64,000 nucleotides of DNA from Leucoraja erinacea (taxonomy: Eukaryota): NCBI RefSeq assembly GCF_028641065.1, contig NC_073410.1, positions 4,340,001 through 4,404,000 on the forward strand, given 5' to 3'. This document shows, one piece after another, positions 9,596-61,340 of the stretch. Numbering within the stretch: position 1 is the first letter of the stretch; every line of letters starts with the position of its first letter. Both the position numbers and the translations under genes were made by a program. The notes under the pieces are model-generated. The model had not been told where the DNA came from. It saw only the letters and a program-made list of their open reading frames with translations, and did no database searches.

Positions 9596-9780
9596 CAAAA
9601 CACAGTGCTGCAGAAACTTAGCTGGACAGTCGGCATCTGGAGAGGGAATGGGCAGGTGAGATTTTGGGTTGCAAACCTCCTTCAGAATGGCGAATGTTTG
9701 AAGAAGGATTCCAACCTGAAACATCGCCTGTTCATTTCCCCCCACAGATGCTGCCTGACCTGCTGAGTTCCTCTGGCAGT
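9596..9780. mobile_element. Penelope-derived fold-back element with degenerate hammerhead cores
   Basis: Two inverted arms (gcatctgg.../...cagatgctgc) with decayed tgaagaagg..tgaaac motifs at the centre. Confidence 0.65.
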
Positions 9781-10319
9781 TTAACAAGCACAAAATAAGC
9801 ATTAAAATGTATGATTTCCAAGTCTGTACAATGCTGACAATGTGTCAACTTCTGGCACAGGGAAAATAGACACTATTTCGGAATACCTCAAAGGTTTTCC
9901 AAGTAACAGCTGCTTAGCTTGTGTGCATTGCTGATCTACAGAGTATACTGCTCTCAATGATTGATACAATTATTATCTGCAACATTGCCCTATATTGAAA
10001 TAAAACCTAAAGATGGTTGGTGTCAAGCTTGTGCTTTGCATCTTATACTTCGATGGATATCCAGACTTATTGTAGTAAATTAAACATTGCTTTTAAGCAA
10101 AGCTAGACTTTGGATTTTAGCTATGCATAAAAATAAGATGGTATTTCAGGAAGGAGCGTGCATGAGTAAAGTTTTGCTTCATAGTTAGTGTATGAGTCCA
10201 GAATAGAGGCAGCTTCTACCATCTTTGTTCTTATTGAACCGATTGCTTCCCAATGTTTGTATTTTATTTCTCTATGGCAATTTTTATTTTCACAAATCGC
10301 ACAACATATTAAGTTAATA

Positions 10320-10540
10320 AATTCATAAGTGATAGGAGCAGAATTAAGCCATTCGGCCCATCAAGTCTACTCCCCATTTCAATCATGGCTGATCTAACTT
10401 TCCCTCTCAATCCCATTCTCCTGCCTTCTCCCCATAATCCCTGACAACCGTACTAATCAAGAACCTATCAATCTCCATCTTAAATATACCCATTGACTTG
10501 GCCTCCATAGCTGTCTACGTTAATGAATTCCATATTCCAA
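10320..10540 (-). mobile_element. CR1 LINE 3' fragment
   Basis: aatcatggctgatct..cccattctcctgccttctccccataa is the reverse complement of a CR1 3' end. Confidence 0.8.
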
Positions 10541-11154
10541 CAGGCAAGATCTCCCTTTCACAAAACCATACTGACCTCAGTCTATTTTATCATATTTAAT
10601 CAATAAGAATTTTTGTTGCATCCCATATAGGTGTTTAAACATCTAAAAATCTTACATTCATCCAATGAGACATGTAGCCACCAAACTTTGAGACAACTGG
10701 ATACAGTTTAAAATAGTTTTCTTACATTCTTTGAAAGCAAAATTATCTGCGTAATGTCCCAAACCTTGTACTTGCATTTTTCAGCCGATATTCAACATCA
10801 TATCCAAGTATAACATATACAGCCTGGGGCTGGATATTAAAATGCATGTGTGATCATTTTTTTGCCCATAATTATTATTTTTCCAATCATTACCAATGAT
10901 TACTTTGGCTGCAACCTGATCTGAAAAAAATCTTCAATTCCTTCTAATGAGACTTTTTTTTTTCTCTTGATGTTATTCCGAATTTGATTTATGATAATGC
11001 ACAATATATATAAATGTACCCAGAATACTTGTATAAAAATATTATTTTGAAAAAACTTAGAAAAATAATAGAATTTTGAGTCTAAGTTTGTTTTGGAAGA
11101 TTTGGTAACCAGATGATGTTCTGTGTCAGAAGGACATTCTTTACGTGAGAATAA

Positions 11155-11615
11155 TGGCCCACATCCCTCTAAATCTTTCCCATCCATGGACTTGTCCAAA
11201 TGGCTTTCAAATGTTGTTGTATCTGCCTCAATGACTTCCTCTGGCTGCTCGTTCAATATAGCCACCAACCTCTGAGTGAAAAAGTTGCCTCTCAGGTTCC
11301 TATGAAATCATCCACTCACACTTAAATCCATGTCAGCCACAGAATTGTAAATCTGTGAAATTCTCTGCCACAGAAGGCTGTGGAGGCCAATTCACTGGAT
11401 GTTTTCAAGAGAGAGTTAGATATAGCTCTTAGGGCTAGTGCAATCAAGGGATATGGGGAGAAAGCAGGAACGGGGCACTGATTTTGGATGATCAGCCATG
11501 ATCATATTGAATGGTGGTGCTGGCCAGAAGGGCTGAATGGCCTACTCCTGCATCTATTTTCTATGTTTCTATGTCCTCTGGTTCTTGATTCTCCTACCCT
11601 GGGTAAAATACTTTG
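11155..11615. mobile_element. Nested CR1s: young plus-strand CR1 (11335-11570) inside an older minus-strand CR1
   Basis: Older CR1 sequence resumes after the insert; ATGTC present at 11330-11334 and 11571-11575. Confidence 0.82.
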
Positions 11616-13996: not shown

Positions 13997-14379
13997 TTTT
14001 CTTCTTCTTCTGTCGTGTATCTTTTAGACCTGCAGCTCCATTGAGGCGAGCCAGGCCAACGTGTCATCGTCCAGGTCAATCAGACCTCGTTCACCATTCG
14101 GTGGCCGGTGTTTGGGGCAACTGGTGACTATGTGCTCCACTGTCTGTGTTGGGTCCCCACACTCGCAGGAGGCGCTGTCCACGAGGCCCCACCTCTTCAT
14201 CGCTACTCCATAGCGTCCGATGTCTGTCCTCAAGCGGTTGAGGGTTGTCCACTGCTTTTGGGGCAAGTCCTGGCTAGGGACGTCCATGGGGTCATCGATG
14301 TAATGGTGTAGCCTAGATGGTTCAGCTGACTACCACTGGTCTCTCCATCTCGTCTTGACCCAGGCGGCCTTGGAAGTGG
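13997..14379 (-). mobile_element. 5'-truncated Vingi/Ingi (I-group)-like LINE
   Basis: WTTLNRLRT..RWGL..CECG..QTVEHIVTSCP (CCHC knuckle), (GAA)n tail, 12-bp TSD CCTAGTGTGCAT (13985-13996, 14380-14391). Confidence 0.8.
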
Positions 14380-16667: not shown

Positions 16668-16795
16668 CTGAAGAAGGGTTTCGGCCCGAAACGTTGCCTA
16701 TTTCCTTCGCTCCATAGATGCTGCCTCGCCCGCTGAGTTTCTCCAGCACTTTTGTCTACCTTCGATTTTCCAGCATCTGCAGTTCCTTCTTGAAA
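16668..16795 (+). mobile_element. Penelope-derived short element starting at an intact minimal hammerhead core
   Basis: CTGAAGA-A-GGGT TTCG GCCC-GAAAC-GTT at 16668-16695; ATCCACT repeated at 16663-16669 and 16796-16802. Confidence 0.75.
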
Positions 16796-16809: not shown

Positions 16810-17095
16810 CTCTGCGACCCAATTTGATCCTGACCTTCGGTGCTGTTTATCTAGTTTGCACGTTCTCCCTGTGACTACATGGGCTTCCCCTCCCTGCATC
16901 ATTCCAAAAACACATGGCCCGATTTGTTAACAGGTCACACTGTAAATAGCTCTTGGTGTGCAGGTGAGCAGCAGAATTTGAGAGGAGTTGACGGGATGCA
17001 GGGAGAATAAAATGGGATTAGTGTAAATTTAGCACAGAAGCGTGCATGCTTGGAGGGCTGAAGGGCTCGTTCCCTTGCTGTACGACTGTGACTCT
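16810..17095 (+). mobile_element. V-SINE, diverged
   Basis: Degenerate B box, V-domain (agtttgcacgttctccctgtgac) and CR1-like tail. Confidence 0.7.
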
Positions 17096-17097
17096 AA

Positions 17098-17323
17098 TAC
17101 CCCTGACCCACTTAGGAAACCTGAACGGAAACCTCTGGAGACTTTGCGCCCCACCCAAGGTTTCCGTGCGGTTCCCGGGGATTGCAGGTGGTTGCCAGAG
17201 GTTGCAGGTAGTGGAAGCAGGTAGGGAGACTGACACATACCTCCGGGAACCGCACGGAAACCTTGGGTGGGGCACAAAGTCTCCAGAGGTTTCCGTTCAG
17301 GTTTCCTAAGTGGGACGGGGGCA
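17098..17323. mobile_element. PIF/Harbinger-type MITE with ~80-bp TIRs
   Basis: Near-perfect inverted arms (cccacttaggaaacctgaacggaaacctctggagactttg...), flanked by TAA/TTA. Confidence 0.82.
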
Positions 17324-18406
17324 TTACTTTCCACAAGTTGGCAGAAGGCTTCACCTCACATAACGATCCAAGCATGATTTGAGGAGCCAAGCGCTGGATA
17401 AGGTGAGTGTGACTGTCGACATTGCAAAAAATATAAATGCAAACCACAAAACGGATAACACTTGCTCCGACCAATGTCGTTTACATCATTGTGGTAATAG
17501 ATATATTAAATGCATCTTTTTTTTTTACACAGTCTTTGCACTGGATATTCAACCTCTGTGCACTGTCAACTGTTTGGATTTGGAAGTTTAACGTATAAAC
17601 AAGGATCAGCAAGAATATATACCCTTTGTCTCATAAATGCCACAATGTCACACGGAGGATAAAACGGCGAAGTTTGTCAACAAACAGCAAAAAAATATCC
17701 AATTATGCTCTGCCAGAGAAATCCAATTACCTGCAGGTTTGGACACAGCTGCAGTAATTGGTGATCTGCACTTTTGGTCAGCAGACAATTGGGATGATGA
17801 AGGCAATTAAACACAAAGACTACACATGCCCTGCAGAGGTTATTGTGGCTGCCGTATCAAAGCTCATCAATTTCAAAATAAGACGAATGGAAGCTGCCTC
17901 CCAATCTCTTCAGCCGCGGAGGCAACCAAAATATTAGTGAGGTGATCATAAGGTAAATTATGTCAATGGAATGACAAATGAAGGCTTTGCAAAAAATGGA
18001 GAGGAATAATTACAGGCCCAGAATATAATTGAGCAATTTGATGGTCCTGTACGTGAGCTGTCGTTTTGATGTGAAGTGCTGTCACGGCCTGTAACACTAC
18101 TGGAATCAGACAGGCCTCGTCCACTTTGATCTACGCTTAGGCAAATGAAATGAGGTCAAAATCTGGTCATTAAAATCTCCCTTGTGTGATTAAAGTTTTT
18201 TTTTAAACTTAAACAGGAGATTTAATTTTTTTTTTAAATCAGACGTCGTGAAGCACAAATTGTCAGCACGATAATAAAGAACAGGAGGCAACAAGCTGGA
18301 AAGGTGGACTAACGGGATGAAGATGTTCTTAAAGCTAGGCATAATTCAACAAAAGACCATATCAATTAAATAAGAGAACACATGTACATTTATGCGACTT
18401 GATATC

Positions 18407-19370: not shown

Positions 19371-20096
19371 TAAGAAGGTAACCTTAAATCTAACATCAAC
19401 TTCAAAAAGAAAAATATCTAAAATTCTGGTAAGATAACTATTAACAACACAAGTAGGGAGCAAAGTCACATTGCAGATGTAGTTGTAAACTGTTTTATTT
19501 CACAAAACCATGAGCAGTCGAAATTTGACGAGAGTTTGGCTACAAGCAGAATAATACTATAATTTTCCCTGTAATTTGTTGATGAAACGATGTCAGCAAA
19601 GCTTGCTGAGAAGTCACAGCAAGGCTAACACGATACCTGAGGCAGGGAAGGCAACTGTGTCTCCTCATTCCTTTATCAGTTCATATGATGATTAACCACT
19701 CAACTCTCCTTAAACAGGTTGCATATTCTAACATTTGTAGCAAAGAACTGCGGATTAAGTGCAGGTGTATTCAACTTAATAACAGGCAAGGAATACATGA
19801 TATGAGAAATCAGAGTCGGAAAGAAGTAGTCAGCAACAAGTCTTTCAGCCCCATAGTGTTTGCACTGACCATCAAACACCAAAAATCATAAGAGATACAG
19901 TCAGAGCAGTATTAGACCATTCAGCGAATCAAGTCTACTCTGCCATTCAATCATGGCTGATCTTTCTCTCCCTCCTGACCCCATTCTCCTGCCTTCTCCC
20001 CATAACTCTGATGTCGTCCCAGACTAACTCAGCGGGTCAGGCAGCATTTCTGAAGAAAAGGAATCCGTGATGTTTCAGGTCTCGTTCCTGGTTTAA

Positions 20097-20314
20097 GAAG
20101 ACATTATTTTGAGAGGTAATTAGGCCTTTCTGTCAAGCCAGTCATTCCGTCGGATGGGTGTGTTGCCACATGCCTCTGCAGTTTAATTTTGTACTTAAGC
20201 GAGGAACACGTTTGAAGTGGCTGTCTGACGCTGGCAGAACGCCAGGCACCAAGACAACAATCCTGAAGAATTTCTGCTGATTCAAGCTTCTGATTATATT
20301 TAGTTTAAAAACTC
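20097..20314. repeat. Local duplication, copy 1 (non-TE-like block)
   Basis: About 10 mismatches over ~210 nt versus 24291-24510 (manual count). Confidence 0.93.
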
Positions 20315-20315
20315 A

Positions 20316-20822
20316 AGATAGACACAAAGTGCTGATGTTACTCAACAAGCCAGATAATATCTCTGGAGAAGATGGATAGGTGATGTTTTGGGTCGGGACC
20401 CTTCTTCAGCCTTGAAACGTCACCTATCCTTCTTCTCCAGATATGCAGCCTGAGGGGTCACAGTTTAAGGATAAGGGGGAAATCCTTTAAAACCGAGATG
20501 AGGAGAACTTTTTTCACACAGAGAGTAGTGAATCTCTGGAACTCTCTGCCACAGAGGGTAGTTGAGGCCAGTTCATTGGCTATATTTAAGAGGGAGTTAG
20601 ATGTGGCCCTTGTGGCCAAGGGGATCAGAGGGTATGGAGAGAAGGCAGGTACGGGATACTGAGTTGGATGATCAGCCATGATCATATTGAATGGCGGTGC
20701 AGGCTCGAAGGGCCAAATGGCCTACTCCTGCACCTAATTTCTATGTTCTATGTTTCTATGAGTTACTCCAGCATTTAGTGCCTTTATTCAGTGTAAACCA
20801 GCATCTTCACTTTCTTCCTACT
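20316..20822. mobile_element. Penelope-derived fold-back element interrupted by a CR1 3' fragment (+, ~20453-20760)
   Basis: Right arm resumes as tgagttactccagc after the CR1 ctatgttt tail. Confidence 0.8.
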
Positions 20823-21037
20823 CATTTGCACTCATTTTATATTAAATTATTCCACCACTTATAGGCATTGAGAAAAACGTCCAGCTGGTCAAATAACCAC
20901 CCAACCCATTGGTCTTTGGGATATGGGTGGAAACTGGAGAATCTTGAGGATGCTCTCTTATCAGATGAAGAATTTTAAAACAGCACACAATCAACACTGG
21001 AGGGCAGGATTAAACCTAGATTTAGTTTAGACTGATG

Positions 21038-21632
21038 ATAGACAAAAAAAGTTGGAGTAACTCAGCGAGACAGGCAACATCTCTGGAGAGAAGGAATTGG
21101 GGATAATAAACAACAGACCATAGGTGCAGGAGTAGGCCAATTCGACCCTTCGAGCCAGCACCGCCATTCACAGTGATCATGGCTGATCATGCACAATCAG
21201 TACCCCGTTCCTGCCTTCTCCCCTTATCCCCTGACTCAGCTACCTTTAAGATCTCTATCTAACTCTCTCTTGAAAGCATCCAGAGAATTGGCCTCCACCG
21301 CCCTCTGAGGCAGAGAATTCTACAGATTCACAACTCTGTGTGAAAAAGCTTTTCCTCATCTCCGTTCTAAATGGCTTACCCCTTATTCTTAAACTGTGTC
21401 CCCTGGTTCTGGACTCCACCAACAATGGGAAACATTTCTCCTGCCTCTAGCGTGTCCAAACCCTTAATAATCTTATTTGTTTCGATAAGATCCCTCTCAT
21501 CCTTCTAAATTCCAGAGTATACAATGTTTCGGGTCTAGACCCTTCTTCAGACTGGTTAGGGATAAGGGAAACAAGAGATATAGACAGTGATGTGGAGAGA
21601 TAAAGAACAATGAACAAAAGATATGCAAAAAA
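21038..21632 (-). mobile_element. Penelope-derived element interrupted by CR1 (-, ~21115-21522)
   Basis: Arm at 21038-21100 continues at 21523 with gtttcgggtctagacccttcttcag (minus-strand hammerhead-like core). Confidence 0.75.
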
Positions 21633-22995: not shown

Positions 22996-23569
22996 AATAA
23001 TAATAATTTTAATAAACTTTATTACGGACTCAAGGTCCAGACAAGGGGCAACATTACATAAAAATGCATTGCATATTAAAAAAATATCAGAAAGTACATA
23101 TAAAATCTTAGTATATCACTTATAAAAGCATAAATTATATATTAAAAAAAACAATACATGAATTAAAAATCCAGATTAAAAGAATGATCAATGTCCTACA
23201 ACGAGACAATGATACCAGTGTCTCCACAGCTGGGATTCGTAGCGTGTAGGGCTAACCCTTATGTTTGACAAGGCAACAATAATTACATTTTTAGAGTCAT
23301 TTATCCTGCAAGTGAATTTATACATATGATTTCTTAGGATAGCTTCTAAAGTACTGACTCCTGCAGTCACAAACATGTTACTAGCACTGCACCATCTAGG
23401 TTTCCTTAGCAGTGTTCTCATGGCATCATTATATGCCACCTTTAGTCTCTGCAAACTTGTCTTTCCATAGTTTGACCACAGGTGCGCAGTGTAGAGTGGT
23501 GTGCAGTGTGCTCCAAATAGCGACATCTTCACCACATCTGCACATGCACCAAATTTACGCAAGGGAATG
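22996..23569 (-). mobile_element. 5'-truncated RTE-X-like LINE
   Basis: Open frame LF..CTPLY..LW...LKVAYNDAMR.LL..PRWCSASNMF; AATAAA and (TAT)n tail; GGTGAAT on both flanks. Confidence 0.75.
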
Positions 23570-23779
23570 ATTCACCCAAGGGTGAATTAAATTATTTTGG
23601 GGTGAATTAAACTACAGGGGTGAATAAAGGGTGAATTACTTAATTTATTCAGATATAATACATAAGGTAGAATAAGAGGAAAATTACCAAAAAACATAAG
23701 ACAATTTAGTCGAGGGTGACTGCAATTTTGTGATAAAGACTCAAGGGGGAATGACACTGAAATAGTTTAAGAGGCACTG

Positions 23780-24070: not shown

Positions 24071-24290
24071 CTGATGGCCCAACGTATTTACTCTTTTTCC
24101 CTCCCCACAGATGCCGAGTATTTCTGGCACTGTCTGTTTTATTTACTGTCACGAATATGTCACACCTCAATACCAGGCAAGCCATGAATAAATTCCGCAA
24201 AACTTAATTCCATTTCGTTCTCATCTTGTTCACCGCCGTGAATTGGTGGATCAAAATTTTTGAGAGAAATAGGGAGAAGCAGTGGTTTGG

Positions 24291-24510
24291 GAAGACATTA
24301 TTTTGAGAGATAATTAGGCCTTTCTGTCAAGCCAGTCATTCTGTAGGATGGGTGTGTTGCCACATGCCTCTGCAGTTTAATTTTGTACTTATGCGAGGAA
24401 CACGTTTGAAGTGGCTGTCTGACGCTGGCAGAACGCCAGGCACCAAGACAATGATCTTAAAGAATTTCTGCTGATTCAAGCTTCTGAGTACATTTAGTTT
24501 TAAAATTCTC
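24291..24510. repeat. Local duplication, copy 2
   Basis: Direct repeat of 20097-20314 at an offset of 4194 nt. Confidence 0.93.
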
Positions 24511-24720
24511 GACACAAAGTGCTGGAGTTACTCAACGGCACAGGCAACAACTCTGGAGAAGATGGATAGCATAGGTGACATTTTGGGTCGGAACTCTTCT
24601 CCACACCCGAAACTTCACCTGTCCTTCTTCTCCAGAGATGCTGCCCGACCCGTTGAGTTACTCCAGCACTTTGTGTCTATATTTGGCCTAAACCAGCATC
24701 TGCAGTATCTTGTTTCTACT
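24511..24720. mobile_element. Penelope-derived fold-back element
   Basis: Inverted arms gacacaaagtgctggagt(t)actcaac / gttgagttactccagcactttgtgtc. Confidence 0.78.
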
Positions 24721-27114: not shown

Positions 27115-27642
27115 CAACAAGGAATTACAGATGCTGGTTTACACAAAAGGACACAAAGTGCTGTAGTAACTCAGCAGGTTGGGCAGCATTTCTGGAGAAC
27201 AAGTGACATTTCGGTTCGGGATCCTTCAGCAGACTGATTGTAATGGAGGGGTGGGGTGGGGGGGGGAAGAAAGCAGGAAGAGAGGAGGGGCAGGACAAAG
27301 CCTAGCAAGTAGTAGGTGGATACACGTGAGGGGAGTTATTGATAGGCAGATGGGTGGACAAAGGCCAGAGATGCAAAGGCAGAAAGTATGAGGCAAAAGG
27401 GTTGAAGAATTGCAAATTGTGAAGTGAGAAGCAGAATTGTAGGGGGGGAGAAATGGGTGTGAGTCCTTGTGGAGAGACTGGGGATGAGGGGGGGGGGGTG
27501 GTAAGATGGTGGGAAAAGGAAAGAGTGGTGGAGAAAAATAGTATTTTCCAAACATACACTGGATCTCCATTTTAATTCCTCTCCCACTCCCATATTGACA
27601 TTTCTGTCCTGGGCCTCCTCCAGATTCAGATTCCAGAGTGAA
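27115..27642. mobile_element. Penelope pLTR-like segment (-) plus an endonuclease C-terminal remnant (+, ~27569-27640)
   Basis: Same terminal arm as the fold-backs, extended by a purine-rich tract. HFNS..HSHIDISVLGLL-like translation resembles the end of the Penelope GIY-YIG domain. Confidence 0.65.
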
Positions 27643-28440: not shown

Positions 28441-28815
28441 GGGCGGCACAGTGGCGCAGCGGTAGAGCTACTGCCTTACAGCGCCAGTGACCCGGGTTCA
28501 ATCCTGACTACGTGTGCTAGTCTGTACGGATTTTGTACATTCTCCCCACACCCGCATGGGTTTTCTCCTAGACCTTTGGGTTCGTCCCACTTTCCAAAGA
28601 TGTACAGGTTTGTAGGTTAATTGGATTGGTATAAATGTAAATTGTCCTTTGTGTCTGTAGGATAGTGTAAAGGGCCTGTCCCACTTACATGTCCTTGGCA
28701 CGCAAATTACGCAACCAAGAACACGTAAGTGGGACAGGCCCTTTACTATTCGGAGATCACTGGTCAGTGAGGACTCGGTGGGCCGAAGGGCCTGTTTCTG
28801 TGCTGCCTCTTTAAC
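28441..28815 (+). mobile_element. V-SINE (HE1-like) carrying a nested MITE
   Basis: gggcggcacagtggcgcagcggtagag head, B box gggttcaatcc, V-domain. Confidence 0.88.
28671..28742. mobile_element. 72-bp Harbinger-type mini-MITE
   Basis: Perfect TIRs agggcctgtcccacttac / gtaagtgggacaggccct, flanked by TAA/TTA. Confidence 0.85.
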
Positions 28816-28923: not shown

Positions 28924-29052
28924 GTACTGAAGAAGGGTTTCAGCCCGAAACGTTGCCTATTTCCTTCGCTCCACAGATGCTGCTGCACCCGCTGAGTTTT
29001 TCCAGCACTTTTGTCTACCTTCGATTTTCCAGCATCTGCATTTCGTTCTTGA
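28924..29052 (+). mobile_element. Penelope-derived short element with hammerhead core
   Basis: CTGAAGA-A-GGGTTTCAGCCC-GAAAC-GTT at 28927-28954; 9-bp TSD ACATCTAAC (28915-28923, 29053-29061). Confidence 0.78.
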
Positions 29053-29994
29053 ACATCTAACCAAACACTGGTTTATAATTCCCAACTTTAATTAAGCAAC
29101 AGTACCCTGTGTGTTCCATCATACAAAGTATGTGTTAGTAAAAAAAAGAGCAGCACATCCTCCCAATTTACTGTGAGCAAAGCCAGAGGAGATGGGCTAA
29201 TTCTAAATAAATATAGCATTAATTAAATGCTCCATTAGTTTTCCTTCCAACAAAAAAATGTCAGCATCATATACAAAATAAGTACCAGCCATGAAAGCAA
29301 TAATATATTTCATCTTTATTGCTATAGCTCCAAGGTAAATCAATTTGAGTTAAGCATTTGGAACTAATTTGAATCCCAATATTTTTTCAGTTTTAACAGC
29401 ACCAGGCAAGGCATGCAATCTTGCAGCAAAAAAACAGCAGCAATCATGATCTATCCAACCACACGCAGATTTTTTTTTCCCGTCAAAGTCCAGGTCAAAC
29501 ACAAAATAATTTCTAATTATGAACTCACTTTTAAATAAAGATGTCATGCAAAAACAACCTGCTGATATGTATTGCTTCTCACACTGGGTGCAAAGGCAAC
29601 GCAAGGGATCGGCTGGAAGTATTTGTCAGGAGAAAGTGAGCTACATTTAGGGAGAGGATTACAGGTTGCAATAATGAAGCATAAAAACAGGCCCTTCGGC
29701 CCAACTCATCCATGCTGAGCAAGACACCCTATCTACGCTATGTTTGCCCGCATTTGGCCAATATCCGTCTGAACCTTTCCTTTCCAATACCTGGCCAAGT
29801 CTCTTTTACATGCTATTATCGTATCTGCCTCTAGTACCTCCTCTGGTAGCTTGTTCCATATACCAACTACCATCTATATGAAAAAGTTGAGATGCACAAG
29901 GTCTAAGTCACAAGGGACTCTAAGCATGAGGGTGAGTTGTGTGGGACCCAATCAAGTGGTGACCACTGCAGAAGATGACATGTAGGATGATTTG

Positions 29995-30127
29995 GTGTGT
30001 AGGAAGGAACTGCAGATGCTGGTTTACACCAAAGACAGACACAACAAGCTGGAGTAACTCAGCGGGTCAGGCAGCATCTCTGGAAAAGGGGAACAGGTGA
30101 CGCTTCAAGTCAAGACCCTTCTTCAGG
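29995..30127 (-). mobile_element. Penelope-derived short element with degenerate core
   Basis: aggaaggaactgcagatgctgg...gacccttcttcag. Confidence 0.7.
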
Positions 30128-30159: not shown

Positions 30160-30660
30160 AACATAGAAACATAGAAAATAGGTGCAGGAGTAGGGCATTC
30201 GGCCCTTCGAGCCTGCACCGCCATCCAATATGATCATGGCTGATCATCCAACTCAGTATCCTGTACCTGCCGTCTCTCCATACCCCCTGATCCCTTTAGC
30301 CACAAGGGCCACATCTAACTCCCTCTTAAATATAGCCAATGAACTGGCCTCAACTACCTTTTGTGGCAGAGAATTCCAGAAATTCACCACTCTCTGTGTG
30401 AAAAATGTTTTCCTCATCTCGGTCCTAAAAGATTTCCCCCTTATCCTTAAACTGTGACCCCTTGTTCTGGACGTCCCCAACATCGGGAACAATCTTCCTG
30501 CATCTAGCTTGTCCAACCCCTTAAGAATTTTGTAAGTTTCTATAAGATCCCCCCTCCATCTACTAAATTCTAGCGAGTACAAACCGAGTCTATCCAGTCT
30601 TTCTTCATATGAAAGCCCTGACATCCCAGGAATCATCCCAGGAATCATCCCAGGAATCCC
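30160..30660 (-). mobile_element. Young CR1 LINE 3' fragment
   Basis: Open ORF2 C-terminus (30253-30630), nearly identical to 2794-3259. Confidence 0.93.
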
Positions 30661-31090: not shown

Positions 31091-31240
31091 AGTCTGAGGA
31101 AGGGTCTCGACCCGAAACGGGGTCTGAAGAAGGGTCTCGACCCGAAGCATCACCAGAGATGCTCCCTGTCCCACTGAGTTACTCCAGCTTTTTGTGTCTA
31201 TCTTTGGTTTAAGCCAGCATCTGCAGTTCCTTCTTACACA
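31091..31240 (+). mobile_element. Penelope-derived element with a tandemly duplicated hammerhead core
   Basis: Two cores at a 30-nt period, 31094-31119 and 31124-31151. Confidence 0.75.
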
Positions 31241-31510: not shown

Positions 31511-31645
31511 CAAAATGATCAAAATTACATATCCTTTTTGGACATGTTCAATCACAAAAAAAAGGGTATCCAATCAAATATCCAAGATAAATGGATCAGT
31601 ATTAATTTTTTGAACTGTTTACTTAAGGGGACTTTGGTGTTTTCC

Positions 31646-31821
31646 CTGAAGATAGACACAAAAAGTTGGATTAACTCAGCAGGTCAGGTAGCATCTCTGG
31701 AGGAAAGGAATAGATGACATCACCTGTTCCTTTTCTCCAGAGATGCTGCCTGACCCTCTGAGTTAGTCCAGCATTCTGTGTCTATAGTCAGTGTAAACCA
31801 CTGCAGCTCCTTCTTATGCAC
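31646..31821. mobile_element. Penelope-derived fold-back element
   Basis: Inverted arms; flanking direct repeat TTG(G/T)TGTTTTCC (31634-31645, 31822-31833). Confidence 0.78.
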
Positions 31822-38299: not shown

Positions 38300-38430
38300 T
38301 CTATATCTCTTTCCCTTTCCCCTGACTCTCAGTCTGAAGAAGGGTCTCAACTCAAAATGTCACCTATCCATTTTCTCTGGAGATGCTGCATGACTCACTG
38401 AGGTATTCAAACATTTTGTGTTTATCTATG
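38300..38430 (+). mobile_element. Penelope-derived short element with degenerate core
   Basis: agtctgaagaagggtctcaactcaaaatgtcacc. Confidence 0.7.
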
Positions 38431-47103: not shown

Positions 47104-50100
47104 AGGGTGGGGAGAGGGAGATGTGACACTGAATCTGGTGGAAGTCGGAGAATGATGTGTTGGGATGCGGATTTACTAATCCTCAAAGAATCTATCACCT
47201 CATCTTTTCCCAGGATTATATTTTATCTGCCACTGTTTTGCCCATTTTATTCTCATCACCATTTTCCCATAGCTGAAGAATTCCCTCCACATTGACAACA
47301 CTACGGCATATTTTTGTGTCCTCCATGGACTTAGTAATTATATCCCCTGGACTCACAAACTGCAATTAGGTGCAGTGCCCTAGGGTTAGGGAGGCAAAGT
47401 ATTGTCTCATACTCCCAATGATAATCTGGTGACTGTCCCTGCCGGTTTACATTTGCACTTTGGTTAAGAACAAGACTGTATTCAACTATGCCGCCTCAGT
47501 GATTAAATAAACCTTCTTCCACCTGCTAGCACTTCTCGTAGCACTGACCTACTCCCACTTTAAAAGGGCAACAGAGATGGAGGCTAGGTGGAGGAGAAGG
47601 TCAAAGAGATGAGAGATAAGCAACTAAAATTTTTTTCTTTCTCTCCAGAGATGCTGCCTGATGCTAACATTTTTCTTGTCTATCTTGCCATCAACTGCAG
47701 TTCCTTTTTATTACATTAAAAAAAATATTTTGTTTTAAATATCAACATGGTAACAGAATGTAGAGTTGTAGAGAATTACACTGCATACAGCATGGCACAT
47801 GGCCCCAAATAAACCATTGTTGTTTATGCTCTACTCCTACATGTTTGGCTCAGCCACTGTGGTGTAGTAGAACCCATATTCATGCCACTCTTAAGCTAGA
47901 GCAACTTCCAAACAGAGCAGACAAAAACATACATTTTAATCATATTAAAAGCCAACAAATATATACTGTAAACTGTGGATGCTGGTGTCCCGCTGAGTTA
48001 CTCCAGCATTTTGTGTCTACACTGTAAAGGCATTGCTAAAACAGAAAGGCACCTTAACAAACTTATTTATTGTTGAAAAGTCTAAATACTTGCAAGTTCT
48101 AAACTTTAAATTAGGGCAAGTGATTAAGTTTTGCTAAATAATTTTACAGATATGAATATTTATCAGGATATTATGTCATGAGCAAATATAAAAATACACT
48201 TAACAAATAACAGAGTCTTATTTTAAGTAAATAGTTAAAACTATGTTTCCACTCTGTTATAGTGTTACTTAAACACAAAGCTGTAACAGAGCAAATTAAA
48301 ATGGTTCACAAGGTTGGATTTATTTAATAAGCTGCTGTTTTTTGGTGGTTGAGGATCAAATCTCACAAGACCCAGCAAGTCTAAGACACCCTTTTACATT
48401 CGAGCTGTCCAAACCGCTGTCAACATCATTAAGTGTTATTCTGCAGTCAATCCATTTAATTAACATTTTTCTTTATGGTGTAATCAACCAAAACTTTTAA
48501 GATTGCCACATCAAAGATTTGTGTTGGAGCCTGTGCTCCCAAATGGGTCTCTGATCTTGCCTATAAAAATGACATACCCTCTATAATTAATTTTGTTGTG
48601 AAATGGATGTTAAGTTAACACTTAACAATGCTGTTGCTTTGTCAACTGTTCTACAGGGTACACACTTCGATATCAACAGGAAAAATCCTTAAACGACAAT
48701 ACCAGTGATAGAGGGGGTGGAAGTTGATTAGGGAAGGGGAGCTGGGGTGAATTCAGGAGTGCCAGAGTACAAAAGACAGACTTGTCTTTTTGTTTAAACA
48801 ACAGGCCCATCCCAAGGTTACCCTTCTGCTAATTCACCATAAACACTGTTTACCATTGTGTAAGATGCACCCGGGTGAAACAGCAACACTACATTCCACC
48901 CAAGCCTGTGCATATTCAAGAACAAAATATGGCAGGACATATCAGCAACACACACGCAGACAGATGCCCGCCATCTGCACTTACTTAAACAGCCCAAAAT
49001 GTCACCTAATAGCCAATATTCTAAACCACTTTAAAAGATCATGACAGAGAAAAATACAGACATACTCTTAACAAAAATCTAAGCACTGCTTTACAAGGCA
49101 ACTCGAGTTAGTTACAAACATTTACTGTAGTAAGTATATTTTTAAGGGCTCATTATCATTATGCATCGCAAAATTGCCGCTGGATTTTTTTTTTTGATAA
49201 AAGCACAATTATTTTTGCATTACGGTAAAATGAAGTAGTACAAATGGGTTGGAGCTTTCCTCTGGAACGTTAAGGTTTATCAGGTTAATACTTTCCAAAA
49301 AATGTACATTAACCTAATTTTCAAATGGTGCCACTTCCCACCATCAGCAGTAAAATGTGTAATGATCCAAAATAGAATGAATTAAGCTTTTAGAATAACT
49401 TCATGGGTATCAATTTTGGACAAGCATTTTTTTATGATCTACTATTATTTGTAATTTGAGCCGTGATTTATACCAAGCTTATATTTTATCATTAAGAAGT
49501 GTTTTGGAATATTTTAACCAATTAACATTGTTATAACATTATTTAAATGGCTTTGCAAATTAATTTCATAGTAAATTAGTTTGGAAATTGCTCTAATTGT
49601 TACGCTAGAAGATGTCCTCTACATCTCGCTGGGAAAAGATTTTTTTGTCTGGTGCCATTATGTGTCATCTTGGCTGAGATTTCTGCCTACAAGGGACATT
49701 TAAACTGTGCAGCAGGAACAGCACCACGGATTAGCCAGAGCTGTTTCTCAGGGTTTAAGAACTACAGTAAATCTTCAAACAATTTATCCAAACAAAACCC
49801 AATGTGTGGAAAAAGACACTGGAAACAGATGAATAAGCAACATCAATTACCAGGGTTTGACCTTCAGTGGCCCACACTATGGCACAGATTTCACACCAAA
49901 TCGGAGCAGATTGAAGTTGACAAGCCTGTAGTGAAAACACTGGCCCTCACAAGGTTGCACTCTACAATCAAACCGCCAGGCAAGGGGCCTGCAAACAGGC
50001 TGGTGAATAAGGAATCACGCATAATGTGCCTGGGTTTATTTTAAAGTGAAGAAAATGGCTCAATTTGAGCACTTAGTCTGCAGAAATTGACCAGTCTGAG

Positions 50101-50574: not shown

Positions 50575-51176
50575 TAAGGTCATAAGTGATACGAGCAGAA
50601 TTAGGTCATTAGGCCCATCAAGTTGACTCCCCTCCATTGAATCTTCCCTGATGTAACACTCACTCCTAACCCCATTCTCCTGCCTTCTCCCCATAACCCC
50701 TGACACCCGTACTAATCATATGACTGTCATATGCTGAGAGAATGGAGCAGCTGGGATTGCACACTCTGGAATTTAGAAGGATGAGAGGGTGTCTCATTGA
50801 AACATATAAGATTGTTAAGGGCTTGGACACGCTAGAGGCAGGAAACATGTTCCCGATGTTGGGGGAGTCCAGAACCAGGGGCCACAGTTTCAGAATAAGG
50901 AGTAAGCCATTTAGAACGGAGACGAGGAAACACCTTTTCTCACAGAGAGTGGTGAGTCTATGGAATTCTCTGCCTCAGAGGGCAGTGGAGGCGGGTTCTC
51001 TGGATGCTTTCAAGAGAGAGCTAGATAGGGCTCTTAAAAATAGCAAAGTCAGGGGATATGGGGAGAAGGCAGGAACGGGATACTGATTGGGGATGATTAG
51101 CCATGATCACATTGAATGGCGGTGCTGGCACGAAGGGCCGAATGGCCTACTCATGCACCTTTTGTCTATTGTCTAT
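50575..51176. mobile_element. Back-to-back CR1 fragments (- 50575-50718; + 50720-51176)
   Basis: The plus copy encodes MEQLGLHTLEFRRMRG...GYGEKAGTGY with a ctattgt tail. Confidence 0.9.
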
Positions 51177-51786
51177 AATCAAGAAGGTAAGAAAATAATA
51201 CAATACATAAATGGAATCGAGTCAAACTCCAGTACAACAGGTAGAGCAAAGGGGAAGATACTGAGTGCAGAATATATTTATTCATCAATATATCCCAAAC
51301 AGTTTTTTTTGTCCATTCAATTTTCTGAGTTAGCTATGAACATAAGTGGGGTTAGAAGTAGCATTTGTTACAGAGCTACTGGGTCACTAAAGGCTGGAAC
51401 ATTCTGCCTGTGGTGTACTGTTTACACTCTTTACTGACCTTTGTATGAAGTAGAAACCTACTTTTTGTGGATTTCTGCTGAGAATTTGCTCTCCCATGCA
51501 ATGCCAATTCCAAACAGGCTTGTACTACATAATTCCATCAGGAATGTTGAGTGGATCAAATCCTGCCTGCAAACCGCTGATAAAAAAAAGCTTTGCGGAA
51601 ATGTTGAATTTGTTCAAAGGAACATGAGAAATACAAGCAAGTCATTCTGCCCCTCGTTCCTGCCCCACTATTCAATAAGATCATGGCTCATCTTTTACCT
51701 CCATGCCATGTTTGTCCACTGACACCATGTCTCTTGCTTAGTTTAAACATACAGCATGGAAACAGGCCCTTCGGCCCATTGACTCA

Positions 51787-52062
51787 GAGGGACAGGCAGC
51801 ATCTCTGGAGAGAAGGAGTGGATGACGTTTCGGGTCGAGACCCTGCATATCTTTCATATCTTTCATTTATTTGTTCTATATCTCTGTACATCAGCGTTTA
51901 TATCTCTCGTTTCCCTTTGTCGTGTCCCTCAGTCTGAAGAAGGGTCTTGACCCGAAACATCACCCATTCCTTGTCTCCAGAGATGCTGCCTGTCTCGCTG
52001 AGTTACTCCAGCATTTTGTGTCTATATTTGGTTTAAACCACCATCTGCAGTTCCTTCCTACA
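51787..52062. mobile_element. Penelope-derived fold-back element inserted in a V-SINE tail
   Basis: Inverted arms; core ctgaagaagggtcttgacccgaaacatc at 51934-51961; imperfect ~18-bp flanking repeat (51769-51786, 52063-52080). Confidence 0.8.
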
Positions 52063-52322
52063 CCTTTGGCCCACTGAGTCCATGTGGAACATCGATCGCC
52101 TGCTAACGCTAGTTCTGTTGTCCAACTTTCTCATCCACTCCCTACACATTACGGGTAATTTAAAGAGGCCAACACACTGACATGCCTTTGAGAGGTGGGA
52201 AGAAACTGGAGCACCTGGATGAAACTCACATGGTCTCAGGAGAAGGTGCAAACTCCACACGGACAGCACTCAAAGTCAGATCTCTGCCCTGTGATGGAGT
52301 GATGTGTCACAGTGCTGCACAT
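52063..52322 (-). mobile_element. V-SINE, diverged
   Basis: Reverse-complement V-domain (gtgggaagaaactggagcac...gcaaactccacac). Confidence 0.75.
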
Positions 52323-53351: not shown

Positions 53352-53460
53352 AAGCACAAGAAGCTGGAGTAATTCAGCGGGACAGGCAGCATTTCCGGAG
53401 AGAAGGAATGCGTTACGTTTCGGGTTAAGACCCTTCTTCAGACTGAAAGTCACGGGAAAA
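53352..53460 (-). mobile_element. Penelope-derived short element with an intact hammerhead core in LRMDA-sense orientation
   Basis: Minus strand CTGAAGA-A-GGGT CTTA ACCC-GAAAC-GTA at 53441-53414. Confidence 0.75.
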
Positions 53461-53759
53461 CAATTGAATGGTGACTGAACCACTTTAGCTTTCAAATCAG
53501 GAGTCAGAATGGTATCATTGAGGCAAGGCTTTATCTGCATAAAACTCTTGCCCATATGATGCTCTAGTTTGCTTTAAACTTACGTCTCATTTTCAACTTT
53601 TTCTACAACTCTTCCATTATTGCATGAGTGAATTTTGCCATGTCAGTGATCAACTTCAACTGACAAAGCATTCTCAACTCTGCTGCAAAAGATTGTGGGT
53701 CACATTCTGATCCAGGTATTTCTGCAATTTGCCCAGGCTGGTAACCCATGCACTATTGA

Positions 53760-57055: not shown

Positions 57056-57239
57056 GATAAATTGCATTTTTGTACACACAATTTGGGAGAGGATGAATGC
57101 AAATGCAGACGCTGGAATTTTTGGGGCAAAAATAAACTACAGGAGGAACTCTGTAAGTCCATCATCTTCCCTTATCCTGGCTGCACTTATCACTTTCCAG
57201 ACTCTGTCTGTACATTCCCCTCCTCTTTCCCGCTTATCC

Positions 57240-57512
57240 ACCATTGTTTCTTACTGATCCCTTTTCATATATCACTGACCAGTCTCTGCTTCTAAAGCTC
57301 CCTCCATCTGTCTATCATCCCCCCCAACCCATTCAATTCCATCCATCACCTTCTAGCCCCTGCCAACCCCCTCCCTCTCTATTGCATATGTGGGATACCT
57401 CCCCTCCACATGCTCAGTCCTGATGCAGGGACTCAAACCAAAATGTTGACCAAACCTGTCTCCACAGATGCTGCTTAAACCATTGAGTTTCTCCAGCAGT
57501 TTTCCTTTTTTT
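57240..57512 (+). mobile_element. Old Penelope pLTR-like segment with a decayed hammerhead
   Basis: gtc-CTGATGC-agggactcaaacc-AAAAT-GTT-gac at ~57417-57450 retains gtc/gac stem I. Confidence 0.6.
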
Positions 57513-60089
57513 CAGATCAATTTACTTCCGATTTTTAAACAGGAACTATGAGTATCTCTGGCAAGCTGACAAAAGTCAAACTTTTAAATGTGGTAATTGT
57601 TAAATTCTGATTTTTTTAATAAGTTCCGATTTTTTTTAAACTGGCAAAATGTGTCAGTGAATCAGGGCACTTATTGGGGCCACCATTTGATTCCAGTTTT
57701 TCCAATTGGAATGTTTTTAAAACAAAATATGGAGTTTGCTGTAAATATACTTTGGAGAACCTTTGGAGAGAACAGTCACCTATTCCTTTTTTCCAGAGAT
57801 GCTGCATGACCCACTGAGTTACTCCAGCATTTTATGTCTATCTATTCGGTATATACCAGCATGACCAGTTCCTTCCTGTACAATAACTTTATAGTCAATG
57901 CTCTTTTTGGAGACAAATAGGTGCCGGTACACATCTAACAGTTAATGCGACACCACTGGTTGCTGTGCATCAATCTAGTTTTGAAACTTTTTAGAGATCA
58001 CACACAGTGTGAACGGTCACAAAAATACTACTACATATTGTTAAGTGCAAAGGACATTATTCTGCTCTGTTGCAATGCATTCTCGGCTGAAAATTCTGCT
58101 GACAGTCATTGCCAATAATTTTCACACAGAGAATGAGAACCACCAGAAATGTTGGTCTTTCGCTATGACATCAGGCGGAGAGGAAGCGAAAGAAATATTA
58201 GGGAAAAAAACCTCTCCTGCTTTAGCATGAAGAACCAAAAGAAATCAATGGCCTTTTTGCAATATTAATAACATCTCGAGTTATATATTTTCCGATACTT
58301 TCTCATCAAGGTCATAGACATTAGGAAGGTTTTACGTATTATTTATACTACTTATCTGATACTTTCCAAACCATTTATTAAATTATGTCAATGAAATATT
58401 GGAGCTGTTCTAACTGCATTTATAAATAGGTGTTTATGTGTACACTTGAACCATTTCCCAGCCAAAGGCACTGTGTCACTAGGCTCTTATAGGCCCCAGT
58501 GAAAATACATTTAGCTCATTATAAACTTCCAGCAGCCAGCAATAACTTTAGTTATTGTCAAAAATGATGAACTACAGTACGATTAATGCAATGAACTATG
58601 ATTACTGAAAAAATGGAACTCCGTGCACCAAGTGTAGCTCAGCTCTAAAATATTAGAATCTACTATGTCACTGTAAGGGGGACTAGAAGCAAAATGCTGA
58701 GCACTCAGAATTATATAATTTATGCTTATTCAAAAAATTGCTCGTGATGCTTTTAGTGTCAGCATCACACTTGTGTTACTTCTCATCACAGAAATACATT
58801 AGATGAGATGCATGCTAAAGACAAAGCTATTTCCATAACCATCAATGCAATCTCAAAGACTTGGCACATCTACCAATTAATTCCAGAACAAATATTAGAT
58901 ATTAATTTATTCCTCTTACCTCCTCATTAGACGTTAGCAGTTAGACTAATAGCAGAAATGGAGCATAGCTCCAAAGTAATTTTCAAATCAAATGAGATTT
59001 TTTTTTCAAATTCCAAAAGTAGCATTTTTAATCTGTAAATGTTCATTTGTGCAGCAACTTCATTTAGACGTTGAAATGATTTAAATGATAAAAATCCTCT
59101 TTTCTATTTCTATTAGAATCAGACAGTAACAGAAAACTCGTCCCTGCATTATTTGACAGTCAAATTACCGAACAAAATGAAAAATGTCATTAAGCCCATA
59201 GGTTAAAAAGTGTCATGAACACTTTAAAGAGATATCCCATTTAACTTCAATATATGCATTAAATGTCACTAATGTGTTATTTATCATCTGTAATCAGACA
59301 AAGAAATCAAAGAAACACTGAAGTACTCCAGCATTCAGCACCTAACATCTCCCAAGAAATCAATGTTATTAATAATTGCAATGATAAAGCTCATATACTT
59401 GCTCCAATGTAAATCTCTTCATGAGAATGAATGATTTCCCCGTGGTTAAATATGGCTCCAGTTTGAAATCTAAACAGACAAAAGTTTGTCAGTTCACCTA
59501 CATTTGGCCTTTCTTTAAAGACAGATATCTCCTAAACTTCCCGCAGGGAAGAACTATTATTGACCTGGTAAGCTTAAATATACCACACTGTCAAAACAAA
59601 ATCTTGACTAATACAAAAGTAAAGTGAAGGCCGCCTGACAGATATTACGTTGACTGTTATATTTGGGTATTGGCAGCAGCATCATATTTGCACTACAGCT
59701 GAAAAATCTGTCCAACATAATACACACATGGGAAATTACGTCTCAACAGATATTCACATTGAATATCTGTTAAGCTTCCAAGTTCACTTACACTACAGCA
59801 ATGATAGGAAATATGTCAGTTTCAATGTGCCAATTCCCGTATTCTGTGTTGTTAGTGCTAGGGGAACTGTACGAGGTGTAACAATCTCCACTTTGTGCAT
59901 GGATACAAAACCTTTATTTTTCAGATGCAAAGTAAAAGTAAATTTCAGCCTCCAACAGCAGATGTAATCCAAGCCACCAACGTCAACCCAATTATAAAGC
60001 AGCCTTTCAACAGGACAGTCCTTGTCCTCATCCATACTGATCAAATGGAGCAGGGGATATTATTTACAAGGAGTGATTGAACAAACTTA

Positions 60090-61115
60090 GTCATAAAGTT
60101 ATACAGCATGGAAACAGGTGCTTTGGCCCAACTTGCCCATGCCAACCCAAGTGCTCCATCTACACTGGTCCCAACTGCCTGCGTTTAGCCTATATATATA
60201 TATCCCTCTATACCTTTCCTATCCATGTATCTGTCCAAATGTCTTCCTAATGTTGTTATAGTACCTGCCTCAACTACCTCCTCTGGCACCTTGTTCCTAA
60301 TACCACCCGCACATACTGTGTGAAAAAGTTGTCCTCCAGGTTCCTATTAAATCTTTCCCCTCTCACTTTGAAACTGTGACCTCTAGTTCTTGATTCCCCA
60401 ACTCTGGGTAAAGGACCCTGTGCAGTGGTGGACTGGCCAGGGTGTCAGCTTGCCCAATGGCAAGTCGGCCCCTATATCAAGTGGGCCCCTGATGGTGGGC
60501 CCCCTTTGTCTCCTGGCAACCTCATATTTTTAGACCCAGTCCGCCACTGACCCTGTGCATCTAGCCTATCTGTTCCCCCTCATGATCTTATCCACCTCTA
60601 TAAGATCACCCCTCATTCTCCAGCGGTCCAAAGAATAAAGTTGTAGCCTAATCAAACTCTCCCTATGGGTCAGGCCCTGAAGTCCTGACAACATAAATTT
60701 TATCGGAGGTACACCATCTGCAATTCCTTCTTAACCACTTTGTTGTGTACCTTCGATTTTCCAGCATCTGCAGCTCCTTCTTAAACAAATACATTTTATC
60801 TGGACTCTTTCCAGCTTAACAACATCATTCTGAAAACAGGATGATGGAATCTGAATACAATACTCCAAATACGACCTCACCAATGTCTAGCACAACTGTG
60901 ACATAACATCTTACTTCACTTGCTAACCTGACTGATGAAGGTATATGTGCTGAAAGCCTTCCTGACCACCTTATCTACTTGAGACGCCACTTTCAAGGAT
61001 CTATGGACCTGCCCTCCTAGATCCCTCTGCTTTACAACACTCCCCAGAGCCTTGCCATTCACTGTGAAGGTCCTGCCCTGGTTTTGACTTCCCAAAATGG
61101 AACACCTCACACTTA
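60090..61115 (-). mobile_element. ~1-kb CR1 fragment with nested insertions
   Basis: GRTFTVNGKALGSVVKQRDLG.QVH.SLKVASQVDKVVRKA, running through to the 3' UTR. Confidence 0.87.
60423..60549. mobile_element. 127-bp hAT-type MITE
   Basis: TIRs cagtggtggactgg / ccagtccgccactg; perfect 8-bp TSD ACCCTGTG (60415-60422, 60550-60557). Confidence 0.9.
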
Positions 61116-61127
61116 GACACATAATCA

Positions 61128-61340
61128 AAAGTAGACATAAAATGCTGGAGTTACTCACCAGGATAGGCAGCATCTCTGGATAGAAAGATATTTTGGGTGA
61201 AGACCCTTCTTCAGACTGAAACTCAACCCAAAACATCAACCATCCTTTCTATCCAGGGATGCTGCCTGTCCCGCTGAGTTATTCCAGCATTTTGTGTCTA
61301 TCTTTGGTGTAAACCAGCAACTGCAGTTCCATCCTACACA
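61128..61340. mobile_element. Penelope-derived fold-back element
   Basis: Inverted arms around a central gacccttcttcagac. Confidence 0.75.

Follow-up and report, generated by a model that had tools for sequence, protein, structure and literature searches.

The window analysed here, a stretch of 64,000 nucleotides from Leucoraja erinacea (NCBI RefSeq assembly GCF_028641065.1, contig NC_073410.1, positions 4,340,001 to 4,404,000), contains many dispersed copies of a short repeat that carries a hammerhead ribozyme motif. Judged by its position and sequence, the repeat is the terminal repeat (pseudo-long terminal repeat, pLTR) of a young Penelope-like element (PLE) encoding a reverse transcriptase (RT) and a GIY-YIG domain. 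The copies are probably dead-on-arrival products of the element's own reverse transcription and not a separate family. An earlier note on this DNA had counted more than a dozen such repeats; the family is real, but its size was understated. A hidden Markov model (HMM) made from 14 terminal copies was run on the window and on sixty 10-kb stretches (599,900 bases) taken at round coordinates on contigs C1–C23, the smaller contigs lying outside the sample. The window contains 37 repeat segments, a head-to-head pair being counted as two, in about 27 insertion units. The sixty stretches hold 281 segments, which resolve to 181 solo copies and 50 pairs (with an untranslated region (UTR) library purged of inverted copies and of one long interspersed nuclear element (LINE) insertion, 49 of 56 entries being kept), and the reversed stretches gave no HMM match. 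Extrapolation to the genome gives 1.03 million segments (bootstrap 0.85–1.21 million). The repeat covers 4.2% of the sampled bases, and repeat annotation and ribozyme searches in such genomes will therefore be swamped by a single end piece.

Penelope open reading frame (ORF) remnants lie where they had been reported, at 2524–2802 and 3262–3340 on the minus strand, split by a retroelement, and at 27568–27630. A search of the genome with the peptide of 2524–2802 gave 150 scored loci, RT–GIY-YIG ORFs among them, and in the matched loci the repeat lies on the coding strand, directly after the stop of the RT and GIY-YIG frame. The repeat and the terminus of the youngest coding element share 91% identity, which bears out the proposed homology to Penelope termini, and the window copies at 16668, 28927 and 33618–33732 are 90–92% identical to the young element's end. 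In 55 of 56 ORF-linked copies the repeat is in sense, 78–388 nt after the ORF C terminus, and among the sampled segments an ORF end lies upstream in sense in 29/281 compared with 4/281 in antisense. Visual inspection of 10 loci of a second subfamily (window copy 51934) showed upstream continuation into the same ORF end in 7. The family is very young, with about 150 near-identical matches, many of them in open frames of 600–1085 amino acids. One frame holds both the RT and the C-terminal GIY-YIG domain and is open over 750–1085 amino acids at many loci; Pfam matches on these ORFs are RVT_1 (E 5e-7 to 1.5e-6) and GIY-YIG (E 5e-4 to 6e-3). Between YIDD and YIGET lies the linker CGRSRCNTC (C-x4-C-x2-C); by this motif alone the element would be Neptune-type, and the motif is common to Nematis. 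The N-terminal part is long and proline-rich, with open frames of 1052–1085 amino acids at loci L131 and L132 and two frames at L143 (L-numbers denote loci elsewhere in the same genome). Repeat positions are numbered from +1, the C of the CAGT directly before CUGA, which places the predicted cut between +32 and +33. In the tandem at L143 an ORF and UTR are followed by the repeat (+1 to +134), an ATG at +169, a second ORF and UTR, and a repeat ending at +98; L147 likewise reads ORF-UTR-repeat-ATG-ORF-UTR-repeat, and partial tandems forming pLTRs are found at L143, L147, L130, L132 and L144. Beside a Penelope at L024 (1811–2465) there are about ten tandem 66-nt repeat fragments without the hammerhead core, which span the cut-site region to near the short end. 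In the open-access literature we found no paper on this element in cartilaginous fish, and a named family may exist.

The copies and element remnants of the window are the following, with positions within the copy given in repeat numbering.

2524–2802, minus: Penelope ORF remnant, RT thumb/linker region, 3' piece (tblastn E 0.25)
2800–3261, plus: 3' end of another retroelement inserted in the Penelope remnant, presumably of a CR1-type LINE; no Pfam family found
3262–3340, minus: Penelope ORF remnant, 5' piece, DSIPYSLFL...SSQDEAFLSRTSE (tblastn E 0.001)
3341–3432, plus: inverted partial pLTR, head-to-head with the cut-down ORF, without hammerhead core
9599–9782: old head-to-head pLTR pair, both cores mutated
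16668–16794, plus: solo pLTR, positions 5–133 (long end), core intact, no stem I strand, 7-nt duplication
20022–20083, minus: pLTR fragment, positions 18–79
20309–20453: head-to-head pair, part of a local duplication with 24507–24712; right arm split by a LINE 3' end, resuming at 20759–20821
21023–21103, minus: pLTR fragment, positions 31–111
21518–21632, minus: 78 nt of Penelope 3' UTR and hammerhead core, ending after position 37, palindrome lost
24507–24712: head-to-head pair, short and long ends
27116–27630, minus: 5'-truncated Penelope with decayed ORF end, 3' UTR and pLTR with mutated core
28927–29054, plus: solo pLTR, positions 5–134, core intact, no stem I strand, 9-nt duplication
29997–30127, minus: solo pLTR, positions 4–134, core mutated (GAAG)
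31091–31239, plus: pLTR with locally doubled core (positions 2–30, then 3–134), both cores defective
31641–31817: head-to-head pair truncated within the core
32501–32607, plus: solo pLTR, positions 5–118, core letters intact, one stem II pair lost
33618–33784: head-to-head pair, long and short ends, exact 14-nt target duplication
34476–34532, minus: pLTR fragment, positions 34–91
36065–36296: old, loose head-to-head pair
38291–38435, plus: pLTR with 39 nt of 3' UTR, short end, G12 mutated
47636–47709, plus: pLTR fragment without core
47977–48021, plus: 45-nt pLTR fragment, positions 52–97, 8-nt duplication
51780–52063: head-to-head pair, 11-nt duplication with one mismatch; right arm with about 83 nt of 3' UTR, core letters intact, palindrome lost, long end
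53352–53463, minus: solo pLTR, short end, 11-nt duplication; alone among window copies in retaining core, stem II, palindrome and both pairs of stem I
57099–57172, minus: weak old pLTR fragment (E 0.009)
57414–57503, plus: old pLTR, CTGATG variant, core mutated
57769–57881, plus: pLTR, positions 24–134
60742–60786, plus: tail-region fragment, positions 87–134
61123–61339: head-to-head pair, short and long ends

The six cores cited in the earlier note, CTGA(A/G)GA-A-[4–5 bp stem II]-GAAAC, are all present at the coordinates and on the strands given (16668–16695, 28927–28954, 31094–31151 and 51934–51961, plus; 21523–21550 and 53414–53441, minus). Their description as the best preserved does not extend to 31094–31151, where both cores are defective, the first lacking UH and the second reading GAAG. 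At 51934 and 21550 the C15.2–G16.2 palindrome is gone (CG to CA), and the copies at 16668 and 28927 lack the element's stem I strand because their first base is the C of CUGA. With a strict descriptor, made up of core, bulged base, 4-bp stem II, GAAA and UH, there were 5 matches in the window compared with 0.01 per shuffle (100 shuffles), whereas the loose motif by itself is weak (6 observed, shuffle mean 1.9, maximum 5). An Rfam search of the window returned no hammerhead family up to E 10; its microRNA-like matches at 31673–31764 and 28666–28747 are inverted repeats far under the gathering scores and were rejected. As proposed, the motif is a minimal type-I hammerhead such as Penelope elements carry: it has a bulged A, its palindromic ACGU would serve a dimer helix III, and stem I is 2 bp long. 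The core CUGANGA ... GAAA ... UH is present in all four subfamily consensuses and in the young element. The base between 9 and 10.1 is A in 146 of 152 copies, the 10.1–11.1 pair is G–C in 98 copies and G–T, a product of CpG decay, in 21, and the ACGT palindrome stands in every subfamily consensus, the copies reading CG (78) or, by CpG decay, CA (30) and TG (28). Stem I is as short as the earlier note had cautioned, being limited to two pairs (T–A or T–G, and G–C) with A–C at the third position in 79 copies.

Among core-covering copies, the core letters are kept in 46/134 of the sampled and 6/17 of the window copies, and all pairings in 18/134 and 1/17, respectively, the sole window copy being 53414–53445. 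One of the observations by which the earlier note would have its reading refuted holds for inserted copies: they show no excess conservation of the core, non-CpG core positions scoring 0.91 and other positions 0.89, a rough comparison because the latter are stable non-CpG positions (62/94) chosen at a conservation of at least 0.8; G12, C15.2 and G16.2 drop to 0.68–0.71, the same as other CpG sites. The cores of inserted copies thus decay neutrally, and their retention in all subfamily consensuses fits selection that would act in the source elements. The loop of stem II had been said to vary while pairing is kept; the commonest pair types of the stem show no two-sided compensatory change. The variation in stem II is subfamily difference plus CpG decay, and covariation was dropped as support for stem II, the changes being one-sided or CpG decay. 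In folding predictions for six copies, a competing hairpin or other fold beats stem II in 6/6, with a stem II probability of 0.00–0.21; the core purine run is predicted in the free RNA to pair with pyrimidines after the cut site, and most copies would be unable to fold a hammerhead.

These results bear on whether the hammerheads in dispersed copies are kept to cut or regulate host transcripts, which we regard as highly improbable. Three raw RNA runs of the species, from fragmented poly(A) cDNA libraries, were compared with the young element. Thousands of reads carry the repeat inside other transcripts, 60–94% of the reads placed on the young element continue into unlike sequence, and some 65,000 copies would keep all pairings by extrapolation from 18/281 segments, all of which would suit such a role. 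The core, however, shows no conservation excess, stem I has 2 bp at most, and the hammerhead fold is out-competed in the predictions. In published work, minimal PLE hammerheads are silent as monomers, weak as dimers or dependent on protein, and need a protein or a partner (PMC4209133, PMC11167929). The RNA runs show no place where many molecules begin or end, as far as fragmented cDNA libraries can tell, and among the joints listed there is no self-cleavage monomer or circle joint, for which poly(A) cDNA is unsuited.

The anatomy of the insertions supports the earlier proposal that the repeats were inserted by Penelope machinery. The 3' ends are bimodal, at +97 to +103 in 72/281 and at +126 to +134 in 108/281 segments, and the stretch of about 35 nt between the two ends is the optional tail already described for Penelope elements (PMC8557442, PMC11167929). 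Where two segments lie within 30 nt of each other, 51 pairs are head-to-head compared with 2 tail-to-tail, and a long end is combined with a short end in 29 of 42 classifiable pairs (p 0.01; 9 pairs were unclassifiable). The target duplications are genuine, those of sampled solos and pairs exceeding controls: at least 9 nt in 9/86 solos (control 0.8%), at least 8 nt in 12/25 pairs (control 2%) and, in a search anchored on the 3' end alone, at least 11 nt in 30/329 (control 0.3%). Exact duplications in the window measure 14 nt (33618–33784), 11 nt (53352–53463), 9 nt (28927), 8 nt (47977) and 7 nt (16668). With one mismatch allowed, 10 of 27 window units have at least 11 nt compared with 6.5% of mispaired flanks, and several of these 10 sit off the insertion boundary. 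The lower limit of the 7–18-bp range given in the earlier note stands, but the longest window duplication is 17 nt with one mismatch and the 18-nt one was not found; overall, the duplications of the copies measure about 8–19 nt.

The 5' ends are spread continuously, the innermost lying within the repeat and the outermost over 1 kb upstream of it, and they peak at the front edge of the motif. All 10 sampled solos with a duplication of at least 9 nt start at -12 to +6. A young set consists of 30 copies on contigs C1–C2 that match the young element without difference from +20 to +133; of these, 13/30 start at -1 to +6, 0/30 at +7 to +19 and 17/30 further upstream. There is no pile of 5' ends at the predicted cut site, +33, among sampled, young or jump-junction copies, and a model in which the short copies originate at the cut was discarded for want of such an excess. 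Single loci do begin there: an ORF-bearing copy at L165:1400 (G000:C12, about 56128390) starts exactly at +33, and units at L214 and L208 begin at +34 and +36. Loose ends of reads from the three RNA runs accumulate at +2 to +5 and have varied AT-rich flanks; they mark the borders of insertions within host transcripts and not the ends of RNAs. The front-edge TCAGT is initiator-like. An initiator-like motif in a pLTR (PMC3846280) and an internal promoter (PMC2377424) have been noted, and a transcription start at the front edge (+1) would be the simplest reading.

We consider it possible, though doubtful, that the copies are random 5' truncations and that the pile at the front edge reflects an enzyme pause or a splice boundary instead of a transcription start. 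The continuous spread of the 5' ends would suit this explanation, as would the upstream UTR, a pyrimidine tract ending in ctgatCAG, and an intron of Drosophila virilis that ends at helix I (PMC4209133). Against it, 7 of 51 first junctions at the jump-back loci described below lie exactly at +1, before CAG, five of them without microhomology (+4 occurs once), and no joint ending at this AG is present among the RNA-read joints listed.

Several findings weigh against the proposed terminal repeat, its start at +1 or the origin of the copies as by-products. The Pfam scores for GIY-YIG lie under the curated cut-off. Raw RNA reads show no pile of molecule ends at +1, the libraries being of fragmented cDNA, and the extra G expected from copying of a cap is only suggestive (6/13). 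In a set of 30 copies extending 290 nt or more beyond the tail, the interval from -12 to +12 contains no 5' end; 8 of the ends fall within +33 to +92 (one of them precisely on +33), another 4 within +137 to +154, and 18/30 are upstream of -67. A single start at +1 does not predict these 5' ends, and the long templates may have been cut. Many templates reach into the previous unit, because 33/51 jump junctions and 17/30 young copies begin upstream of -10. Lastly, the two oldest clusters are poor in ORFs (2/27, 0/19), and a past non-autonomous burst may have contributed to them.

For an origin as by-products of reverse transcription, the following course can be proposed on the model of PAc, a Penelope-like element of the green anole (PMC11167929). 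The protein would bind its RNA downstream of the repeat and nick the target, and cDNA would start inside the RNA at either of two fixed points (about 97–101 or 134). Extension of both target strands would give a head-to-head pair, mostly with one long and one short end. Many cDNAs would run through the uncut hammerhead and, judging by the junctions, stop at its front edge (about -1 to +6), where TCAGT is likely to be the 5' end of the element's RNA. Solo copies of 95–135 nt would arise because the cDNAs stop at this edge, and copies ending at 97–134 would not move again, since binding probably requires a downstream stretch that is missing from them. Copies occur solo, head-to-head or behind longer truncated Penelope bodies, and those that extend upstream run into the Penelope 3' UTR and ORF end. 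All four sequence subfamilies hold ORF-linked members (a set enriched by targeted searches), the ORF-linked shares by cluster in unbiased samples being 6/17, 1/7, 2/27, 0/19 and 11/50; the upstream extensions of the ORF-poor clusters are Penelope-type UTR, and no sequence unique to the short copies was found. The copies share clusters with the coding element, continue into its UTRs and have no sequence of their own, and therefore behave like its debris.

The earlier note had instead proposed a separate non-autonomous, retrozyme-like family whose short ribozyme RNAs would self-cleave, circularise and be reinserted by the Penelope protein. This now appears improbable: the subfamilies are shared, Penelope UTR lies upstream, the copies are dispersed and the cores evolve neutrally. 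Such a family would account for the discrete size classes with their own target duplications, the roughly 90% of segments without an ORF end within 600 nt, the nearly ORF-free oldest clusters and the tandem arrays of the repeat elsewhere in the genome, and a preprint derives animal retrozymes from pLTRs (bioRxiv 10.64898/2026.07.22.740005). However, the short copies have no sequence of their own, their upstream extensions are Penelope UTR or ORF and all four subfamilies are ORF-linked; the window copies are dispersed, neither begin nor end at the cut site and carry neutrally decaying cores; and each array has its own unit borders and is 91–100% identical to the coding element. Copies in the window are dispersed monomers or inverted pairs, with no tandem of complete repeat units. 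Tandem units of 150–450 bp with at least two complete hammerheads, which define a retrozyme, are thus absent from the window, where the only doubled core (31091–31146) is defective, but occur at, for example, L209–L211. A canonical type-I hammerhead with a 6-bp helix I and loop contacts is likewise lacking, the motif being minimal. In these two defining traits the window copies differ from non-LTR retrozymes.

The known non-LTR retrozymes are similar in being non-coding and pLTR-related and in having a type-I hammerhead and long duplications (Cervera and de la Pena 2020, PMC7229834; bioRxiv 10.64898/2026.07.22.740005), and the genome arrays of 165–350-nt units would partly fit the retrozyme definition (Li, Clavereau and Pollet 2026, bioRxiv 10.64898/2026.07.22.740005). 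Compared with retrozymes (PMC7229834), the motif of the window copies is mostly broken, there is no loop–loop hammerhead, and the borders lie off the cut site.

The origin of the arrays was approached through a 33-nt motif just past the long end, which occurs 131 times in the genome; the 100 places listed make up 63 loci, of which 10 that continue into the ORF were set aside and 53 were examined, the other 31 places lying outside the count. At 49/53 loci the sequence breaks off somewhere from +194 to +344 and resumes immediately from a new start that lies further upstream. None of the examined breaks falls between +164 and +193, a gap close to the 55–60 nt of RNA beyond the initiation point that the protein of the anole element requires in vitro (PMC11167929). 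The new start is exactly +1 in 7/51 first junctions (6 loci; two with 6–7-nt microhomology), at +1 to +11 in 13/51, at +34 or +36 in 2/51 and upstream of -16 in 33/51, and the last unit ends at +94 to +101 (30/51) or +134 to +140 (14/51). Arrays of up to about 14 units, 91–100% identical to the coding element, are found at five loci:

L208, G000:C1:24092476–24094948: young tandem array
L209, C9:41120889–41124430: young tandem array, two-armed (inverted)
L210, C23:3112543–3115254: young tandem array
L211: young tandem array, two-armed (inverted)
L234: young tandem array

Each unit, 165–290 nt long, comprises the pLTR and the beginning of the ORF. Unit borders are not the same from locus to locus, nor even throughout one array. 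This is more readily explained by repeated template jumps on protein-bound RNA than by a single circle closed at the cut site; alternatively, a circle joined elsewhere or a later expansion at the DNA level may have produced the arrays. More tentatively, and with somewhat less than even confidence, the genome may record the full reaction cycle of a Penelope and the birth of retrozyme-like arrays, jump-back and cutting of long transcripts only included. RT would start at one of the two fixed sites, run to the capped RNA start at the hammerhead front, and then jump back into the protein-bound stretch 60–210 nt past the tail and recopy the repeat; repeated jumps would build up arrays of as many as about 14 units, and no cleavage by the ribozyme would be needed. 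Copies reaching the ORF would start past the cut site and avoid +1 because the hammerhead would cut only long transcripts with two ribozymes. If this is true, jump-back is a testable route from a Penelope end to retrozyme-like arrays that requires neither cleavage nor a circle, and it bears on the purpose of the Penelope hammerhead and on the regeneration of tandem pLTRs. We found no paper on jump-back products of Penelope in the open-access literature.

Much of this has precedents. Minimal hammerheads are known from fish Xena, Poseidon and Neptune elements (Cervera and de la Pena 2014, PMC4209133), and the minimal PLE hammerheads of that work share with ours the CUGANGA/GAAA/NUH core, one base between 9 and 10.1, the G10.1–C11.1 pair, the palindromic 15.2–16.2 and the place in the pLTR. 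The motifs are there also mostly single and tied to truncated elements, with opposite-strand pairs 100–700 bp apart. Stem I has 2 bp in our repeat compared with 4–5 bp in the usual form and 2 bp in D. virilis, and stem II has 4–5 bp compared with 7–8 bp; against the 4,000–9,000 motifs of coelacanth and Xenopus stand about 1.0 million segments, approximately one-sixth of them core-intact, found by a different search method (PMC4209133). Endonuclease-bearing PLEs similarly have a single RT and C-terminal GIY-YIG frame with a C-x4-C-x2-C linker (Craig et al. 2021, PMC8557442), partial tandems, head-to-head inversion and an optional tail of about 35 nt (PMC8557442; Arkhipova et al. 2013, PMC3846280), as well as duplications of 8–10 bp and longer, solo pLTRs and an initiator-like pLTR motif (PMC8557442, PMC3846280). 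The young element's ORF is longer than the PLE ORFs of about 840 amino acids in the compared publications. Solo pLTRs here often have a duplication of their own, whereas those of Adineta are without and were ascribed to recombination, and unlike in those elements they outnumber ORF-bearing ends about nine to one (PMC8557442, PMC3846280).

A further comparison is with PAc, a Poseidon element, whose tail reflects two internal reverse-transcription start sites (PMC11167929). As in our copies, there are two internal starts, both target strands are extended (Frangieh et al. 2024, PMC11167929), uncut RNA is the main template, and no reads end at the cut site. PAc needs RNA about 55–60 nt past the start, and here the jumps land at +194 or beyond, 60 nt past the long end. 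Our element differs in belonging to another clade by its linker motif and in having its ATG past the tail (+169) and not inside the hammerhead, and the steps shown in vitro for PAc are here read from sequence junctions (PMC11167929). The motif in pLTRs, single truncated copies, inverted pairs, tails and duplications are already published; since motif, host element and insertion shapes are all known, the finding as stated is ordinary. The junctions of the very young copies lend in vivo support to the model, derived in vitro, in which synthesis begins internally on uncut RNA, and they mark the minimal downstream RNA stretch. The copy ends also give an indication of how the enzyme begins, halts and resumes copying of its RNA.

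Other features of the window were observed in passing. A local two-copy duplication links 20089–20453 and 24284–24648; its host part of about 205 nt is 95% identical between the copies and found nowhere else in the genome, and the Penelope pair next to it has clearly diverged further. Constraint or conversion may have acted on the host part. That 20089–20309 is host DNA carried between pLTRs was rejected, the segment having only two occurrences, both in the window. There are also many LINE 3' fragments, which we take to be of the CR1 type (among others 2800–3261, 5140–5434, 20453–20747, 30163–30624 and 50722–51174), and short repeats with AGGCCCTTCGGCCC; several interrupt Penelope copies. The 82-nt inverted repeat at 28666–28747, with its sub-threshold Rfam microRNA match, is unrelated to the Penelope repeat and is possibly an element like a miniature inverted-repeat transposable element. 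At 17018–17480 a block of about 60 codons recurs in open frames of both strands, suggesting a tandem duplication or a palindromic repeat. Two ORF fragments on the minus strand, 14024–14329 and 23188–23571, have no Pfam match and presumably resemble the C termini of other non-LTR retroelements.

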